DNA of 8,021 nt from the IMG/VR virus record IMGVR_UViG_2778261358_000014; one strand, 5' to 3'. Made by a program: the position numbers and the translations under genes. The notes beneath the pieces are model-generated. The model was not told the origin of the DNA and did not search any database. It saw only the letters and a list, made by a program, of their open reading frames with translations. Source of the DNA: a virus (lineage: Duplodnaviria > Heunggongvirae > Uroviricota > Caudoviricetes). Below, in pieces: positions 2,193 to 8,021 of the stretch (positions are counted from its first letter, which is position 1; every line of letters begins with the position of its first letter).

Positions 2193-2438
2193 TTATTCTC
2201 CAGCGCTTTTAACGTTGATGGTTGTTACCTGTTCCGCTTCGGCAATCTCCCGTTCTGTCAGCGTGGCAAAGTTTGCCGCCGCTGTGGTCATGAATGCGCT
2301 TATCAGTTCGGGATGCTCCTTCGCGTATCCTTCCCCCGCGTGGCGGTCTATCGTTCTGATTGCCACCTTTAAGGAAAGCTCTGTCATGTCTAACGCTTTA
2401 TATTTTGGCGCTGTCTTATCTCTGGTTTTTCTGTTCAT
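2193..2438 (-). CDS. Hypothetical protein (81 aa) downstream of the origin
   Basis: ORF from the track with ATG at 2438 and protein-like composition, followed by an intrinsic terminator. The antisense ORFs here are low-complexity. Confidence 0.5.
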   Translation of the reverse strand: MNRKTRDKTAPKYKALDMTELSLKVAIRTIDRHAGEGYAKEHPELISAFMTTAAANFATLTEREIAEAEQVTTINVKSAGE

Positions 2439-2641
2439 TCCCCACTACTCCCCACTTTTGCTCCCCACTTTTTGAAATTACCCACCGTCTCCCCACCTCT
2501 TTTTTTTGTGATTCTAACGTTATGTTTTTCAATATGTTTTTTACTCCCCACTTTTTTGGGTATATACAGGTGGGAAAGTGGGTAATTATGTTTCAATTTT
2601 GTTAAATTCCCCACTCCCCCCACTTTTACTCCCCACTTTTT
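2439..2641. repeat. Iteron array, putative island replication origin
   Basis: At least eight direct copies of (CT)CCCCAC(T)4-8 (at 2440, 2450, 2463, 2491, 2546, 2609, 2616, 2631) plus an inverted copy GGTGGGAAAGTGGG (2569-2582), flanking an AT-rich core (about 2500-2545). It starts directly at the stop codon of the Rep helicase gene. Confidence 0.6.
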
Positions 2642-4040
2642 ACAGCGGGCGCACGTCATCACCGTCAATAACGATTACGCCATCATTTTCCAGCTTGTAC
2701 AGCCAGCGCCGGAAGTGCTTCATCTCATACCCCAGCTTTTTCATATCGTCGCGGAGAAGGGCGATAGTGCACGCCTCCCCGTGTGCTGTTCGTGTTCTGA
2801 TGCACTGCCATAGCGCGGCGTGATTCTCCGTCTTGTTCCCTGCCTCCTCGATGCGCTCCAGTTCAACGGGAGGGCGCGGCTTATCCACCACCACCAGCGA
2901 CGTGATTAACTCCCCGTCAGCGTCGGTAAAAAGCTCCACCACGCGTAAGTCATATGCTGCTTCTTTGAGTTCCTCCGCGTCCTTCATTTTGGTACATGAG
3001 ATAACCAGCGCTTCGCTGCCTGCGTCCTCCCTGCGTATCCGGTATTCGGCGTCCAGTGATGCACGAAATGCACTGGAACCACGCGCCCCCTTTGTTTCAT
3101 CCTTGCCGGAATGGTGAACCACCAGCACCGTTGCCCCTGTGCGCCGTTTCAGTTCGTCACACCCACGGATAAACGCCCCCATATCACGGGAATCATTTTC
3201 ATCATTGCCGCCAAAGCAGCGCGCCAGCGTATCCAGAATAATCATTCGAACCGGTTTACCCGTTTCCCGTTCCACCTGACGGGCAGCGATAACCATTTCC
3301 TCAACATCAAGCGGGGCAGCCGGAAAGATGGGACGGTTTACCAGATACAGATTTTTCACCTGCTCACCGTGCACAACCTCCCAGGCTTTTACACGACGCG
3401 GAACGCCGATACCGCCTTCACCAACCACATAGAGAACAGCGCCATGCGCCACCCTGCGGCCTCCCCACTGGCGGCCCGTGGAAACGTGACACGCCCACGA
3501 ACCCGCAAGGAACGATTTATATGAACCGCTCGCCCCGTATATGCTGCACAGCGATACCGCCGGAATAATCCCCTTAACCACGTAATCAAGTTGTGTGTCG
3601 TATCCGGCAGATCCCACGCTCATTGGTAGCGTGGTTTTTCGCTGGTGGTGTTTTTCTTCCCCTGGCTTTTTCCCCCGCTCCCGTTCCAGATATTCGCGCC
3701 AGTTCTCCCGCTTCTGGCTGTGCATCCCTTCGGGGTAATAATTCGCATCAGTTACACCCGCCGCCGCCAGCTTGTGCGCAATGGCATTAATATTTGATGG
3801 CCTGATGTGGCCTGCCTTGTACAGCCGGACACAATAGCGCCCCTCGTCGATGATTCTCAGGTCTGCCAGTTCATCCAGTTGATCATCAGCCAGCACAACG
3901 GGAGGCACATTATCGCCAGCCAGTCGCCCGTCCTGTTCCTGCCACTGTTTCGCATGTGCCCAGGCATCACTACCCGCAAAAATAATGACTTCGGTCATCT
4001 TGTCGTAAGGCTGTTTTTTTAAGTTCGGTGCGCTTTTCAT
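2640..4040 (-). CDS. RepA-like replicative helicase (RecA-fold / AAA_25-type ATPase) with a C-terminal putative origin-binding domain, 466 aa
   Basis: Walker A GASGSYKS (residues 169-176, nt 3513-3536), Walker B VRMIILD (about residue 270) and the VLVVHHSGKD motif typical of RepA/DnaB-like helicases. The start ATG overlaps the stop of the upstream ORF (ATGA). The gene is immediately followed by iterons. Confidence 0.85.
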   Translation of the reverse strand: MKSAPNLKKQPYDKMTEVIIFAGSDAWAHAKQWQEQDGRLAGDNVPPVVLADDQLDELADLRIIDEGRYCVRLYKAGHIRPSNINAIAHKLAAAGVTDANYYPEGMHSQKRENWREYLERERGKKPGEEKHHQRKTTLPMSVGSAGYDTQLDYVVKGIIPAVSLCSIYGASGSYKSFLAGSWACHVSTGRQWGGRRVAHGAVLYVVGEGGIGVPRRVKAWEVVHGEQVKNLYLVNRPIFPAAPLDVEEMVIAARQVERETGKPVRMIILDTLARCFGGNDENDSRDMGAFIRGCDELKRRTGATVLVVHHSGKDETKGARGSSAFRASLDAEYRIRREDAGSEALVISCTKMKDAEELKEAAYDLRVVELFTDADGELITSLVVVDKPRPPVELERIEEAGNKTENHAALWQCIRTRTAHGEACTIALLRDDMKKLGYEMKHFRRWLYKLENDGVIVIDGDDVRPL

Positions 4041-4336
4041 TTCTTGCCCCTGAATCCGTTAATCATGTTTTTCATCTTCTGAATATTGGTGCGTGCTTTC
4101 TCCCTGCTGGTGGGCTTGCTTCGTTGCGCTGCCTGCACCAGCGTAAAATCACGTTCGAACTGATAAACAGGCATCACGCAATCATATTCGTAGCCTTCAC
4201 GGCGGTAAGTTACGCGCCGTTCCTCCACGCCCTTAATCATTACCGTGCCGCCGTACTTATCGCGGTAAATATCCCCGCGCATGAATTTAGTGCGAGTTTT
4301 GCCACTGGCAGTTAAGCCAGGATATTTAAGTTTCAT
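4037..4336 (-). CDS. Hypothetical basic protein (99 aa), translationally coupled to the helicase
   Basis: ORF from the track with ATG at 4336 and GGAG upstream. Its stop overlaps the helicase start. K/R/Y-rich, possibly nucleic-acid binding. Not recognised. Confidence 0.5.
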   Translation of the reverse strand: MKLKYPGLTASGKTRTKFMRGDIYRDKYGGTVMIKGVEERRVTYRREGYEYDCVMPVYQFERDFTLVQAAQRSKPTSREKARTNIQKMKNMINGFRGKK

Positions 4337-4341
4337 TATTT

Positions 4342-4572
4342 TTATTCTCCGGTGTGCTGTTCTTTATATCTGTCGTGCAATAGATCTATTTCTTGCAGTT
4401 CCATTATTACAGGCTCAAGAATCGTTATTAATGCCGTGGCAATTCTTGATTTTTGTTTGTCGCGTTCATTGTCGCCAAGTGTTTCAAGCCATATGCGAAA
4501 TATTTCCAACATATTTTCACTGTGAGAAAGTGCAAGAAATGCGCGGTCTATTGTTTCAAAGATAAATATCAC
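4342..4572 (-). CDS. Hypothetical small protein (76 aa; GTG start, or 56 aa from an internal ATG)
   Basis: ORF from the track, tightly packed between neighbours with 5-nt gaps. The region is visibly AT-richer than the flanking helicase gene. Confidence 0.4.
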   Translation of the reverse strand: MIFIFETIDRAFLALSHSENMLEIFRIWLETLGDNERDKQKSRIATALITILEPVIMELQEIDLLHDRYKEQHTGE

Positions 4573-4577
4573 GCATA

Positions 4578-4799
4578 TTAATCCCCGTCCGTTGTTTTTC
4601 TTAAAACAGCTTCTGTCACGAAATCAGCATAGTTAGCGGCAATATCAAGAATATTTAGCCCTGTACCTCTGTGCTCATCAGTGCAAAGAAAGAAAAAAGC
4701 CACCCGCATAATTTCAGATATTGACGAAAGCGCATCAGCCGCATCATCAGGAACGCCGGAAAATTCTTGTTTCAGGGAATTAAAACGATCATCACGCAT
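4578..4799 (-). CDS. Hypothetical small acidic protein (73 aa)
   Basis: ATG at 4799 preceded by GGAGG-rich sequence (GGGGAGGGGGGG) at good spacing. Overlaps the upstream ORF by 28 nt. Confidence 0.5.
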   Translation of the reverse strand: MRDDRFNSLKQEFSGVPDDAADALSSISEIMRVAFFFLCTDEHRGTGLNILDIAANYADFVTEAVLRKTTDGD

Positions 4800-5017
4800 A
4801 ACCCCCCCTCCCCATTTTCACAATCAGCAACAAGAATATTTTTAGCGTCATTCAGCGACCGCGTGGCGGTGTATCGGATACATTCCAGGGCGAACAATGT
4901 GTATTCTTCCCGTTCTTCCTTTTGTGCAAGCCCTGCTGTGCATTCAATATCAATAAGCGCATGCATCAGCGTAGTGAGCGCGGCGGCTGCTGCGTCCGGT
5001 GTGGTTTTATTGCACAT
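4772..5017 (-). CDS. Hypothetical small protein (81 aa)
   Basis: Internal ATG at 5017 preceded by AGGAGG (6-nt spacer). It overlaps the stop of the upstream repeat-containing ORF, suggesting coupling. The ORF track's upstream extension to 5059 lacks an RBS. Confidence 0.5.
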   Translation of the reverse strand: MCNKTTPDAAAAALTTLMHALIDIECTAGLAQKEEREEYTLFALECIRYTATRSLNDAKNILVADCENGEGGLCVMIVLIP

Positions 5018-5567
5018 GGCACACCTCCTGACGAATACGGGCGGCGAATACAGCAACACAACCGGACGGGCAACGGCTACGTGCTTCGCGTTCCGTCCAG
5101 GCGGTTACGTGGATGATTTGATGTTCTGACGCGCCAAAGATGATAAAGCGCCAGAGAAAGGCGGTTTGAGAATGTACAAGGGTAGGGATAGTAGCCATGT
5201 TGGCAGCCTCCTCAGTGTGGTTAAGATAACCGCCACCGGAAACGCCAATTTCGCTGGTGGCGGACTGTACAGGGTTGGCGTAACCGGACACTGAAGAAAC
5301 CGGCGCGGATTGCTCCGCCCCCGTACAGCCCACCATTGATAAGGTGTGACTATGCGGCACAAAAAAACACGCGGGGCGCGTGTTATGCGCTTCAGTTTTG
5401 CCCAGGACGCCAATCCCGGCACCCGTTTTATGAGGTGCGCGGGAATCATAGCTATTTTCGACACTGGCGATCAACTGGTTTTTTTCTCCGATATTCAGGG
5501 CCAGAAAACGCCACACAAAGGCCGTTTGTGTGTGTACAAGGTGTGGTATATGATTTACGGCAACCAT
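5007..5567 (-). CDS. Repeat-containing open frame (186 codons) with two RBS-preceded in-frame starts (5567 and 5198); may be one protein, two paralogous small proteins, or a partly noncoding leader
   Basis: AGGAG + ATG at 5567 and AGGAGG + ATG at 5198. The paralogous N-terminal segments (M..IPxLVH[ST]QTAF[LV]WRF) differ mostly at third codon positions. An intrinsic terminator sits inside the frame at 5357-5384. The ORF track's 409-aa extension beyond 5567 is rejected. Confidence 0.3.
   Translation of the reverse strand: MVAVNHIPHLVHTQTAFVWRFLALNIGEKNQLIASVENSYDSRAPHKTGAGIGVLGKTEAHNTRPACFFVPHSHTLSMVGCTGAEQSAPVSSVSGYANPVQSATSEIGVSGGGYLNHTEEAANMATIPTLVHSQTAFLWRFIIFGASEHQIIHVTAWTEREARSRCPSGCVAVFAARIRQEVCHVQ
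5357..5384 (-). terminator. Strong intrinsic terminator on the minus strand, about 210 nt downstream of the leftward promoter
   Basis: Stem AACACGCG / CGCGTGTT (8 bp, GC-rich, 3-nt loop, plus-strand 5366-5384) followed on the minus strand by a run of seven U (plus-strand A-run 5361-5367). Confidence 0.55.
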
Positions 5568-5596
5568 AACGGCTCCTAGTTTACGTTGTTGGTTAG

Positions 5597-5638
5597 ACGC
5601 CCCGTATGTGTTCCCAGCACTGCGGGGCGTTGATTTTT
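5597..5638 (+). terminator. Hairpin plus T-run on the plus strand (terminator-like); its complement also forms a 5' leader hairpin of the leftward transcript
   Basis: Stem ACGCCCCG / CGGGGCGT (5597-5604 / 5623-5630) with an inner 5-bp helix, followed by TGATTTTTGTG. It sits 18 nt after the stop of a plus-strand ORF (5352..5579) that is antisense to the leader ORF. Confidence 0.4.
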
Positions 5639-5655
5639 GTGTAATGGCAAGTACA

Positions 5656-5704
5656 ATGGTAATTACCATGTAGGTATAGTAATGAAGGGTAATTACCATG
5701 TCAA
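5656..5704. promoter_or_regulatory. Switch region: leftward sigma70-like promoter (-35 TTGACA, 17-bp spacer, -10 TACTAT) overlapped by two palindromic operators (ATGGTAATTACCAT and GGTAATTACC)
   Basis: Minus-strand TTGACA corresponds to plus 5699-5704 and TACTAT to plus 5676-5681, with an exact 17-bp spacer. The perfect 14-bp palindrome is at 5656-5669 and a 10-bp palindrome at 5688-5697, centres 30 bp apart. A plus-strand TATAGT (5675-5680) shares the -10 region. Confidence 0.5.
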
Positions 5705-5871
5705 CACCATTAGAAAAACGTTCGCCTCCATACCAAATGCGATTACCGGAAGACTTCAGAGCGCAGCTAGAAGAAGCAGCTAAGGCCGATGGCGACACAT
5801 CTTTAGCCACTTGGATTAAACGCGTTCTCCGCAAAGAATTACAGCAACGCGGCATAGAACCCAAAGGATAA
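5698..5871 (+). CDS. Ribbon-helix-helix (Arc/MetJ/CopG-type) DNA-binding protein, 57 aa; candidate island repressor. Not in the ORF track
   Basis: Translation MSTPLEKRSPPYQMRLPEDFRAQLEEAAKADGDTSLATWIKRVLRKELQQRGIEPKG has the Arc-type pattern (beta-strand MRLPEDF, then two helices). AAGGG RBS upstream. Palindromic operators lie immediately upstream. Divergent from the replication operon. Confidence 0.65.
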   Translation: MSTPLEKRSPPYQMRLPEDFRAQLEEAAKADGDTSLATWIKRVLRKELQQRGIEPKG

Positions 5872-5928
5872 AAACTATCAGCGCCGTGGTGTGAGGTATT
5901 ACGGCGCATTGCTATGCAGGACAACACA

Positions 5929-6102
5929 ATGACCGATAAAGAATTGACCAAAACATTATCACCGGCACGGAAAAGACGGCGCAGAAAGATAGAGCATGAA
6001 TCAGAAAGATTCGCGCCATGTGCTTTTGCCCTTGAGCAATTCCTTAAAGAGTACAGGGAAAAGCGCTCATTGCAGGTATGGCAACGAACTGAACCAGACT
6101 GA
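5929..6102 (+). CDS. Hypothetical small basic protein (57 aa) downstream of the RHH gene
   Basis: ATG at 5929 preceded by AGGAC (7-nt spacer). R/K-rich stretch (SPARKRRRRK). Same transcription unit as the RHH gene, ending at the terminator at 6198. Coding status uncertain. Confidence 0.3.
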   Translation: MTDKELTKTLSPARKRRRRKIEHESERFAPCAFALEQFLKEYREKRSLQVWQRTEPD

Positions 6103-6197
6103 TTGCATTGCCCACCAGCCTGATAGCGGCTATCATCCCCGTGCTTATGTTTGGGATCACATACACATAAGGCGCAGCGGGTTAATTGTTCAGAAAG

Positions 6198-6224
6198 GCG
6201 GCTCCATATCGGGGCCGCTTTTTT
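6198..6224 (+). terminator. Rho-independent terminator between the convergent RHH unit and alpA, possibly bidirectional
   Basis: Stem GCGGCTCC / GGGGCCGC (8 bp including one G-U pair, 5-nt loop) followed by TTTTTT (6219-6224). The alpA stop is at 6251 on the opposite strand. Confidence 0.65.
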
Positions 6225-6250
6225 CGTGTTTGTCATATCTGTGATACCCG

Positions 6251-6457
6251 TTAAGCAGCCGTTCCGCGTGCTTCCTCTTCGCGTTCTTTCTGCCAGGACA
6301 ACACATCATCCTCATACCATCCGCGACGGCGTAAACCAACGCGAAAACCCTGCGGAAATTCTCCGGCGTTGATCATGCTTTGCAGCGTGCTGTCTGCCTT
6401 GATGTGGATAATTTTTTTTACTTCCTGGCGAAAGATAATTTTTCTGATTGCTTCCAT
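6251..6457 (-). CDS. alpA: AlpA/Vis-family transcriptional regulator (excisionase-like MerR-type HTH), 68 aa
   Basis: Motif ...LQSMINAGEFPQGFRVGLRRRGWYEDDVLSWQ matches the AlpA signature (FP...G.R..GW.E.DV..W). RBS AAGGT upstream of ATG 6457. Located next to a P4-type integrase, as in P4 (Vis) and CP4-57 (AlpA). Confidence 0.8.
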   Translation of the reverse strand: MEAIRKIIFRQEVKKIIHIKADSTLQSMINAGEFPQGFRVGLRRRGWYEDDVLSWQKEREEEARGTAA

Positions 6458-6624: not shown

Positions 6625-6807
6625 TTACCGCCATTTTTTGGGCCTGCCTCCGATCTTCATAGATGCCGGACGTACGACCTTATCAATACTTACCGCCAGA
6701 TTTCTGGAAGCGCCACGGGATACCAGAAAATCTACTACCTGTTTTTTTGATGGGGCCGTCGTTCTGTCCTCCGGATCGTAGGTTGACCAAAATTCATGCT
6801 GAACCAT
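6625..6807 (-). CDS. Hypothetical small basic protein (60 aa) translationally coupled to the 3' end of the integrase
   Basis: Its ATG (6807..6805) overlaps the integrase stop TGA (6809..6807) as ATGA. The frame ends 12 nt before the terminator. The ORF track's longer version (from 6855) overlaps the integrase coding sequence. Confidence 0.3.
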   Translation of the reverse strand: MVQHEFWSTYDPEDRTTAPSKKQVVDFLVSRGASRNLAVSIDKVVRPASMKIGGRPKKWR

Positions 6808-8021
6808 CAGGGCCAGTTGCAGCCCGTCGCCGCAGCCTCGACAAATTCGCCCCACCAGCGCATCAGCACGATGCGTTTTTCTATGTAGTTGCTCCGGTTG
6901 TATGCCCGTCTAACTTCGTTGGTGTCGACGTGGGCAAGTGCCGCCTCTATTACGTCCGGCTCGAATCCTTCCTCGTTCGCTGCTGTGCTGAATATGGCGC
7001 GTAATCCATGAGACACCAGCACGCCAGCGAATCCCATACGCCGCAATGCTGCGTTAGCTGTCTGGCTGTTCATCGGCTGCTGTGGGTCTTTCAGACTTGG
7101 GAAAACGTAATTGCGGTGGTGGCTGATTGGTTTCATGGCCTCCAGCACCGCCATAGCCTGACCGGAAAGCGGGATAACGTGATCCCTGCGCATCTTCATG
7201 CGTCCGGCAGGTATCGTCCATTGCTTCGCGTCCAGGTTGATTTCATCCCACCGCGTTGATGACGCTTCGGCGGGACGGGTTACGGTCAGTAACTGCCATT
7301 CAATCAGTAATCTGGTCTGCCGTTCTGTTGCCGATACTGATAAAGCCTGCATAAGCTCGGGCAGCTGTTCGGGGCGGATTGTTGGCATATGTTTTTTTAC
7401 AGGTGAGGGAAACGCCTTACGCACATTCATAGCCGGATTGGCATCAATCAGCCCACTGTTGGCGGCGTAATCCATTACCTCATTAACGCGCTGTAAAACC
7501 CGCTTGAGTGTTTCCAGGTTGCCGCGCTCCTTGATGGGGGTAAGCACTTCAACGAACCTTCGGGCGGTGAGGGTATCTATTGGCGTGTTGCCGATGAACG
7601 GGAATACATATTTATCCAGCGAACGCCAGATGTCTTTAATCGTGTTGGGGGCCAGATTCTGGCTGATTTTCACCTGGTACCATGCCGCCGCCACATTTTC
7701 GAACGTGTTCCCTTGTCTTCGGGCCTCTGTCTCTCTTTTTTGCCTCTCGTGGTCCTGCGGGTCAGTTCCGGCACTGATTAACGTCCTGTACTCGCTACGG
7801 CGTTTTCTGGCATCAGCCAGGGAAACATCTTCAAGCGATCCAAAACTCAGCAATATTCTTTTTTTGTCCGATGGTCGGTAGTAGGAAAATCTCCAGAGTT
7901 TTGATCCAGACGGTTTGACCAGGAGAAAAAGCCCTCCGCCGTCCTGCAGGGTGTACTCCTTTTGCGCTGGTCTGGCTGCTTTGATCTGCACTGTGGTTAA
8001 TGGGTGTGTTTTTCTCGCCAT
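6807..8021 (-). CDS. int: Tyrosine site-specific integrase, P4-type, 404 aa (complete; ATG is the last three bases of the window)
   Basis: N-terminus MARKTHPLTTVQIKAARPAQKEYTLQDGGGLFLLVKPSGSKLWRFSYY is the characteristic P4-integrase N-terminal (arm-binding) motif. The C-terminus carries HGLRAIF (HxxR) and the VRRAYNRSNYIEKR region with the catalytic Tyr. Confidence 0.9.
   Translation of the reverse strand: MARKTHPLTTVQIKAARPAQKEYTLQDGGGLFLLVKPSGSKLWRFSYYRPSDKKRILLSFGSLEDVSLADARKRRSEYRTLISAGTDPQDHERQKRETEARRQGNTFENVAAAWYQVKISQNLAPNTIKDIWRSLDKYVFPFIGNTPIDTLTARRFVEVLTPIKERGNLETLKRVLQRVNEVMDYAANSGLIDANPAMNVRKAFPSPVKKHMPTIRPEQLPELMQALSVSATERQTRLLIEWQLLTVTRPAEASSTRWDEINLDAKQWTIPAGRMKMRRDHVIPLSGQAMAVLEAMKPISHHRNYVFPSLKDPQQPMNSQTANAALRRMGFAGVLVSHGLRAIFSTAANEEGFEPDVIEAALAHVDTNEVRRAYNRSNYIEKRIVLMRWWGEFVEAAATGCNWP

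Follow-up and report, generated by a model that had tools for sequence, protein, structure and literature searches.

An RgdR-encoding four-gene block upstream of the replicase of an Escherichia coli phage satellite contains a length-variable G-tract at the junction of two of its genes

Phage-inducible chromosomal islands (PICIs) of Gram-negative bacteria, such as EcCICFT073 and EcCIO42 (PMC6092414), are recognized by a short list of components—i.e. int, alpA, pri-rep, capsid-morphogenesis and terS genes (PMC10085698). They carry an iteron-flanked, AT-rich origin of replication just 3' of the replication gene, and rgdR has been reported in all analysed E. coli PICIs (PMC6092414). Here we compare with these elements a stretch of viral DNA of 8,021 nucleotides (nt), hereafter the window (IMG/VR record IMGVR_UViG_2778261358_000014; Caudoviricetes), which is an E. 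coli/Shigella PICI-type phage satellite with int, alpA, immunity RNAs, icd, a replicase gene with its likely origin, terS and a capsid-morphogenesis gene. Our subject is a block of four small open reading frames (ORFs A to D) that lies between the immunity region and the helicase-type replicase gene, and that the original prediction had taken for a separately acquired accessory cassette.

With Gram-negative PICIs and the capsid-forming PICI (cf-PICI) OI-51 the window shares int, alpA, a unidirectional operon, rgdR, pri-rep with iterons on its 3' side, terS and a capsid-morphogenesis gene, and the leftmost module is common to PICI and cf-PICI. The PICI papers (PMC6092414, PMC10085698) do not mention three features of the window, namely a putative C4/isrK-icd gate, the genes A, B and C, and a polymorphic G-tract. 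For the gate, the closest likeness is found in phage immunity loci. In phage P1, immI follows the order c4 antisense RNA, icd and ant. The window resembles immI, and the isrK locus of Salmonella Gifsy-1, in its C4 and isrK covariance-model matches and its Icd-like ORF; as in immI, the ribosome-binding site of icd finds its complement in the C4 loop, and the icd stop is overlapped by the next gene. It differs from immI in having A-B-C-rgdR-rep in place of ant, and neither Pfam nor PHROGs searches detect an Ant, Bro or KilAC domain in A, B, C or D.

The left operon of satellite P4 (NC_001609) is alike in architecture, with three to four small overlapping genes between an RNA-immunity region and a replicase. 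Specifically, it consists of ORF88 (AlpA-like), the cI RNA region, epsilon, ORF151, ORF106 and alpha, with 8-nt overlaps. BLASTP and hidden Markov model comparisons of A, B, C, D and a further gene, X (see below), with epsilon, ORF151 and ORF106 are all non-significant, and the Pfam models Derepression (epsilon, PF25738) and DUF5375 (ORF106) miss A to D, yet recognize the P4 proteins. Homology of D to ORF151 was also considered and rejected, as the alignment is weak (E = 0.6) and has no backing from Pfam.

The four ORFs and the replicase gene that follows them are located as follows.

4772..5017, minus strand: ORF-A, 81 amino acids (aa) from ATG 5017, or 95 aa from an upstream GTG
4578..4799, minus strand: ORF-B, 73 aa, with its own ATG
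4342..4572, minus strand: ORF-C, 76 aa, with a GTG start
4037..4336, minus strand: ORF-D, 99 aa
2640..4040, minus strand: RepA-family helicase (AAA_25), the satellite replicase, with Pfam and PHROG matches and translationally coupled to ORF-D

Four tightly coupled ORFs of 81, 73, 76 and 99 aa had been predicted between the immunity region and the helicase, and their coordinates, spacing and location are all confirmed. The block is polycistronic: there are overlaps of 11 nt between icd and A and of 28 nt between A and B, gaps of 5 nt separate B from C and C from D, and D shares an ATGA with the helicase gene, while a Shine-Dalgarno-like motif precedes each of the four starts. Comparison with relatives identifies all four as real genes rather than chance ORFs, because they have strong PHROG or Pfam matches, hundreds of homologous clusters and ratios of non-synonymous to synonymous substitution rates (dN/dS) below 0.5. 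Pairwise dN/dS is 0.45 for A, 0.41 for B, 0.33 for C and 0.32 for D, indicating purifying selection on each of them. In many relatives the four ORFs correspond to three gene families, with A and B fused.

The order Int-(AlpA)-Icd-A-B-C-D-RepN is kept in nearly all of 84 loci, yet about one-third of them have exchanged the catalytic region of the replicase, which may be a RepA helicase, a protein of the 'DNA primase family' or DUF927. Because the order is near-invariant over some 80 independent loci while the neighbouring catalytic part is exchanged, we regard the block as part of the satellite core and not as cargo, which contradicts the proposal of a separately acquired cassette. The four ORFs are thus probably the conserved middle of the PICI early operon, in which D is RgdR, A and B form a pair that is fused or split by a G-run, and a C4/icd gate acts on the whole.

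We find that ORF-D is an ortholog of RgdR, a DUF4222 family that is already known, because it matches Pfam DUF4222 (PF13973) over residues 17–68 (87.2 bits against a cut-off of 27, E = 5.1e-25), aligns without gaps over 99 aa and at 80% identity with the DUF4222 protein of O157:H7 OI-51, and has an RGD at residues 20–22 (context F-M-R20-G21-D22). The RGD is found in 78 of the 86 sampled copies, the remainder being PGD, NGD or CGD. Across the alignment of loci L001–L089, G21 and D22 never change, and residue 20 may be R, C, N, P or K. The published RgdR (ECs1581) is a basic protein of 99 aa whose RGD at 20–22 is required for activation of LEE1 and type III secretion, the R20C form being inactive; it also represses motility, its DNA binding is non-specific, and its orthologs are reported at >77% identity (PMC3378721). 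The cluster representative nearest to the window's RgdR (95% identical) is CGD, the state reported to be inactive in type III secretion activation in strain ED1a. Like RgdR of O157:H7 OI-51 and C1493 of CFT073 (PMC3378721), ORF-D has 99 aa, DUF4222, RGD at 20–22 and a place directly upstream of the replicase. No substantive difference is seen at the sequence level; the LEE1 and motility activities are known for the published protein, the window allele being known by its sequence.

The N-terminal ~125 aa of Rep (3666–4040, minus strand) are conserved together with rgdR across loci L004–L089, the catalytic C-terminal part differing. RgdR and the Rep N-domain look co-inherited, which hints at an interaction between them. 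Because it is invariably coupled to the conserved Rep N-domain, RgdR is most likely a DNA-binding cofactor that assists the satellite's replicase or its early regulon.

ORF-A and ORF-B are, on comparative evidence, the N- and C-terminal modules of one gene family, because both match the 154-position phrog_2512 (positions 1–75 and 78–146, respectively) and relatives carry a single gene in their place. For example, the A/B gene has 145 aa in the relative from E. coli strain 10159 (L001) and 154 aa in that from O157:H7 (L002). ORF-A also matches phrog_5146, and ORF-B matches phrog_24341 (E = 1.6e-42). Fused forms make up 120 clusters of 144–151 aa and occur on many hundreds of contigs. The ORF-A of the window, by contrast with these, runs 28 nt past the ATG of B and ends in ...CENGEGGLCVMIVLIP before its stop. 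Its identical 81-aa product is present on 12 contigs and the identical 73-aa B on 367 contigs, and other stand-alone N-halves, ending in ...CENGGGYA or ...CENGEGGYA, are found on >200 contigs. When 1.84 billion representatives (50% identity) were searched exhaustively with a profile, the family had only 52 members, mostly stand-alone halves and two of full length. Internal duplication was considered and rejected, as BLASTP aligned neither A with B nor C with the fused A/B.

What separates the fused from the split forms is a run of G at the junction.

4802..4813, minus strand: hypermutable G-tract GGGGAGGGGGGG (G4-A-G7, 12 nt) at the A/B junction

In a DNA alignment of the junction the run alone differs, being G10 in L001, G7 in L002 and G4-A-G7 in the window. 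A and B are split in the window because the 12-nt tract is out of frame, with B in the -1 frame. In the fused forms the tract encodes a Gly linker, and the A that interrupts it in the window creates a GGAGG Shine-Dalgarno sequence 7 nt upstream of the ATG of B. A survey of 75 junctions, drawn from 80 IMG/VR loci and reference loci with a stated run range of G6–G11, gave the following states.

Fused junctions: G7 (n = 23) and G10 (n = 4)
Split junctions with plain runs: G8 (n = 26), G9 (n = 13) and G11 (n = 1)
Split junctions with interrupted runs: G4AG7 (n = 4), G4TG3 (n = 2) and G5TG2 (n = 2)

In all, 27/75 junctions are fused and 48/75 split, which does not differ from the 1:2 ratio expected without constraint (P = 0.62). 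Among flank haplotypes seen repeatedly (420 nt identical), 6 of 11 differ in run length (e.g. G10, G9 and G8), and these comparisons show the run changing length faster than the flanks acquire point mutations. Finished RefSeq chromosomes include both fused (G10, G7 and G10) and split (G9, G8, G9 and G8) states, and for the split forms the NCBI Prokaryotic Genome Annotation Pipeline (PGAP) gives two genes in some cases and a 'frameshifted' pseudogene in others. Sequencing artefact was rejected as the sole source of the variation, because it also takes the form of interrupted out-of-frame tracts and recurs across hundreds of contigs and in finished genomes. The interrupted tracts, which are less slippable, are fixed in the split frame.

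The same design is found at a second junction. In L039–41, L045, L046 and L055, B stands alone behind another upstream gene, X (phrog_340), whose match to the N-half of phrog_2512 (E = 1.5e-22) is better than that of A. The array of L040 and L045 runs from a separate A gene of 74 aa, with its own stop, through an X of 127 aa to B. The X-B junction toggles likewise, G5 fusing the two into 192 aa and G6 splitting them. Extra small genes in this array, namely X and a 76-aa gene before A (phrog_1478), are carried by some elements (L040 3215–4017, L045, L088 and L089). We infer that B works with A (or X) as a partner module, that the run is both the ribosome-binding site of B and a potential linker, and that B would be translated from its own start.

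Homopolymeric tracts act as contingency loci in Campylobacter, Neisseria and Haemophilus, where poly-G runs drive phase variation, and such loci are uncommon in E. coli. The A/B junction resembles them in its in-frame G-run, its length differences between otherwise identical sequences and the presence of all three frames; as such, it is a homopolymer of ≥7 within a reading frame that is polymorphic in length among near-identical sequences, with every frame represented. It differs in its E. coli host, in its location in a phage satellite and in the nature of the change, which is between a fusion and two chains and would not be on/off, because B starts at a codon of its own, for which the run would be the Shine-Dalgarno sequence. 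The run outpaces mutations in its flanks, two types of junction share the design, and both halves appear to be selected either way; on these grounds we tentatively raise the possibility, which we think doubtful, that the A/B and X/B runs are contingency loci—i.e. heritable and reversible high-rate switches between a single chain and two that would also alter translation initiation of B, so that satellites within one clonal E. coli population would differ in induction or in their dealings with the helper phage, by which a PICI might hedge its bets. Literature searches found no description of a G-run that fuses or splits two modules, nor of homopolymer switching in satellites.

ORF-C, a conserved small helical protein (phrog_2196), also departs from the majority allele. 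In relatives it is a 77-aa protein that begins MRDIYLETIDRAF. An extra T in the window (CTT to CTTT, 4558–4560) shifts the frame of the canonical ATG (4576), which then ends after six codons at a stop at 4556–4558. A GTG at 4572, 4 nt downstream of the canonical ATG, lies in the new frame and reopens C; core residues 5–73 still match the family (E = 1.6e-36). Any product of this allele would have to start at that GTG, which may rescue the gene. Among 86 copies the allele occurs in the window and L031 only, and the identical product is found on 28 contigs. B and C also have their start in common: both begin ATGCGTGAT (MRD), a 10-nt direct repeat at 4568–4577 and 4791–4800. Some relatives have in-frame deletion fusions, either of the first ~49 residues of B with C (126 aa) or of B with a remnant of C (P0189, 36 contigs; L055 3986–4270), and the ATGCGTGAT repeat might mediate them.

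The original prediction had recognized none of the four proteins, and this stands for A, B and C, which are uncharacterized satellite-specific proteins; it does not stand for D. Of the profile and structure searches it had named, the former gave DUF4222 for D and PHROG matches for A, B and C. AlphaFold2 models A as a helical hairpin (predicted local distance difference test, pLDDT, about 75), and the fused A/B (pLDDT 58.7) as a helical hairpin joined by the Gly linker to a second helical bundle; the fused model was kept out of the fold search because its confidence is too low. The model of D (pLDDT 67) has a beta-meander followed by a C-terminal helix, and a Foldseek search of PDB with it gave no match below E = 1. 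Sequence searches of PDB with D, C and the fused A/B returned nothing, an NCBIfam scan recognized the Icd-like ORF as the sole protein, and literature searches found no functional work on A, B or C, which are listed only as 'hypothetical'.

The leader from which the block would be expressed contains the following features.

5007..5198, minus strand: Icd-like ORF of 63 aa, first cistron of the operon (NCBIfam NF033153, E = 1.4e-15; PGAP annotation of relatives)
5253..5340, minus strand: C4-type antisense (immunity) RNA (Rfam RF01695, 77.6 bits against a gathering score of 45)
5362..5438, minus strand: isrK-like small RNA with a terminator hairpin (Rfam RF01394, 66 bits against a gathering score of 50)
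5676..5704, minus strand: sigma-70-like promoter for leader-icd-A-B-C-D-rep (TTGACA-17-TACTAT, 10/12; a consensus match only)

Nucleotides 39–53 of the C4 loop are complementary to 5218–5204 over 15 bp (4 G-U pairs), and 5204–5218 holds GAGGAGG, the Shine-Dalgarno sequence of icd, upstream of its ATG at 5198. The terminator-like site of the operon leader is at 5384–5366. We propose that transcription would start from the promoter near 5704–5676 and run through the isrK-like/C4 antisense-RNA leader, and that the C4 loop would block icd by pairing with its ribosome-binding site, as happens in P1 immI. When this block is lifted, ribosomes would move from icd through the four ORFs to the replicase gene via the overlapping or abutting stops and starts, and the small proteins would therefore be made along with the replicase. 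The replicase or the early regulon would then have RgdR as its DNA-binding cofactor, and A and B, two helical modules, would act as a pair. The G-run would double as the Shine-Dalgarno sequence of B and, when in frame, as a Gly-Gly(-Gly) linker, and slipped-strand changes in its length would flip the pair between one fused chain and two, apparently at little fitness cost. In the state found in the window the pair would be split (G4AG7, with GGAGG before B), and C, if made, would start at its GTG.

Several points weigh against this account. With its A/B split and the 5' frameshift of C, the window departs from the majority by two lesions, as a decaying cryptic element would, and one G9 allele is a frameshifted pseudogene according to PGAP. 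Some sequencing chemistries are prone to errors in homopolymer length, and part of the G7/G8/G9 scatter is perhaps artefact, although the interrupted-tract alleles and the number of contigs, in the hundreds, suggest that it is mostly real. The dN/dS values of 0.4–0.5 represent moderate constraint only, and the pairwise estimates are phylogenetically non-independent. AlphaFold2 confidence is low to moderate (59 for the fused A/B and 67 for D), D being without a fold match. Separate translation of B and use of the GTG of C are both read from sequence alone, and the role of RgdR in the satellite is a proposal only, its published phenotypes being host-directed.

The first of these points leads to gene decay, by which the window would be a cryptic satellite that gathers frameshifts, the A/B split and the C frameshift would be inactivating, and the ORFs would be pseudogene fragments. 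It would account for two frameshifts relative to majority alleles within one 700-bp stretch, for the PGAP 'frameshifted' label on a G9 allele and for frame states at the neutral 1:2 ratio. Against decay, both halves are open and full-length in 48/48 split loci, and dN/dS shows no relaxation between split-split and fused-fused comparisons (0.49 vs 0.38 for A, and 0.41 vs 0.41 for B). B keeps its ATG and Shine-Dalgarno sequence, A and B are bona fide separate genes around gene X, distant representatives of the family are mostly stand-alone halves, and C retains its phrog_2196 core, with a GTG 4 nt downstream that reopens the frame. Taken together, these comparisons indicate that the split state is not simply inactivation, and we judge decay unlikely.

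The composition of the block bears on a second alternative. As predicted, 4342–4800 is AT-richer than its surroundings: its GC content of 0.394, in the lowest 1.3% of same-size windows, lies below that of the window as a whole (0.492) and of the helicase gene (0.554). GC at third codon positions (GC3) is 0.31 in B and 0.33 in C vs 0.49 in A and 0.56 in D; the shift is thus limited to B and C, and it starts exactly at the G-tract between A and B. This suggests that B and C, from the tract onward, had a source other than that of A, in which case they would have come in before the satellite family diversified.

A block with such a signature could be read as a separately acquired accessory cassette for helper interference or anti-phage functions, marked by its low GC. 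Consistent with this, the products are small, satellite-specific and uncharacterized, PICI accessory genes can sit upstream of pri-rep (PMC10085698), and an E. coli PICI adds to superinfection immunity via an unidentified gene (PMC11773190). The compositional distinction is confined to B and C, as noted. Against an accessory origin, synteny is near-invariant across divergent elements in which the adjoining replicase catalytic domain is exchanged, and the presence/absence polymorphism typical of defence hotspots is not seen for the block. PADLOC-DB v2 (E ≤ 0.1) gives no match for A, B, C, D, the fused A/B or the helicase, and D is a known regulator found in all analysed E. coli PICIs (PMC6092414). 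In a tblastn search of 50,697 phage genomes, A/B and C have no match and D has one weak match. We consider an accessory cassette very unlikely, and the functions originally predicted for it find no support here, although A, B or C may have a role in satellite-helper cross-talk.

The least probable alternative is recoding, in which a fused A-B would be made from out-of-frame alleles by programmed -1 frameshifting or transcriptional slippage on the G-run: G_GGG_GGG at 4809–4802 is a formally perfect X_XXY_YYZ heptamer in phase with the frame of A, from which a -1 shift at 4802–4809 enters the frame of B (...GEGGV-MRDD), but no stable RNA structure follows (z = 0.43; 126/200 shuffles fold as well), the interrupted tracts G4TG3 and G5TG2 break the heptamer yet persist, no out-of-frame configuration is conserved because all three frames occur at neutral frequencies, and G-runs are not known for efficient slippage in E. 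coli.

The rest of the element, in which the minus strand carries nearly all genes, is laid out as follows.

6807–8021: integrase (family match), followed in the gene order by a 76-aa ORF
6251–6457: AlpA-like regulator (family match)
Between helicase and TerS: three small ORFs
2429..2641, strand not given: iteron cluster, with CTCCCCACTTTT repeats around an AT-rich core, directly 3' of the helicase gene
1087–1713: TerS (family match)
1–927: capsid-type gene

The five PICI core components of SatelliteFinder (int, alpA, pri-rep, capsid-morphogenesis and terS) are all present, in one transcription direction. At 2429–2641, CTCCCCACTTTT and its variants occur in at least six copies, together with a 19-nt inverted repeat, and this cluster is likely the satellite origin of replication, its position agreeing with the PICI arrangement. 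The AT-rich B-C stretch was considered as an origin and ruled out; it has no iterons, which lie instead 3' of the helicase gene. A 409-aa ORF at 5007–6236, across the leader RNAs, was rejected as spurious.

The early promoter at 5676–5704 faces a divergent promoter on the plus strand, which belongs to an Arc/YlcI-YnfO-like ribbon-helix-helix gene (5698–5871, plus strand). This gene may encode a protein repressor beside the RNA immunity; it is accompanied by a 62-aa ORF (5914–6102, plus strand; phrog_21027), and a strong terminator at 6192–6224 ends this plus-strand unit. A motif of ~50 nt is present in two minus-strand copies, one inside icd (5135–5185) and one upstream of isrK (5495–5545), the latter in a PGAP 'ash family' pseudogene. 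Both translate as IPxLVHxQTAFxWRF and could represent either remnants of a duplicated Icd-like coding sequence or a pair of target sites for RNA.

The closest annotated relative, L001, is 94% identical over the region and lies between tRNA-Pro and yejO in E. coli strain 10159, with a gene order that matches the window. L002 adjoins roxA/ycfD in O157:H7 and is the OI-51/CP-933C island (PMC3378721). At least part of the region is present in 2331/5426 complete E. coli genomes (~40%), and a taxonomic-spread scan of genome contigs gave one locus, in Shigella flexneri.

The finding is mostly ordinary, in that these are conserved early-operon genes of PICIs and include the known RgdR; its chief interest is the hypermutable G-run. 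RgdR of OI-51 affects type III secretion and ruminant colonization in O157:H7, and the block is present, at least partly, in about 40% of complete E. coli genomes. Seeing the small ORFs as core genes gated by a C4/icd module helps to frame how Gram-negative PICIs switch on. Annotation pipelines treat the A/B locus inconsistently, as one gene, two genes or a 'frameshifted' pseudogene, and its run-length polymorphism is a natural experiment on the roles of A and B. Should the tract prove a true switch, simple-repeat phase variation of this kind would be unusual both in E. coli and in a phage satellite.

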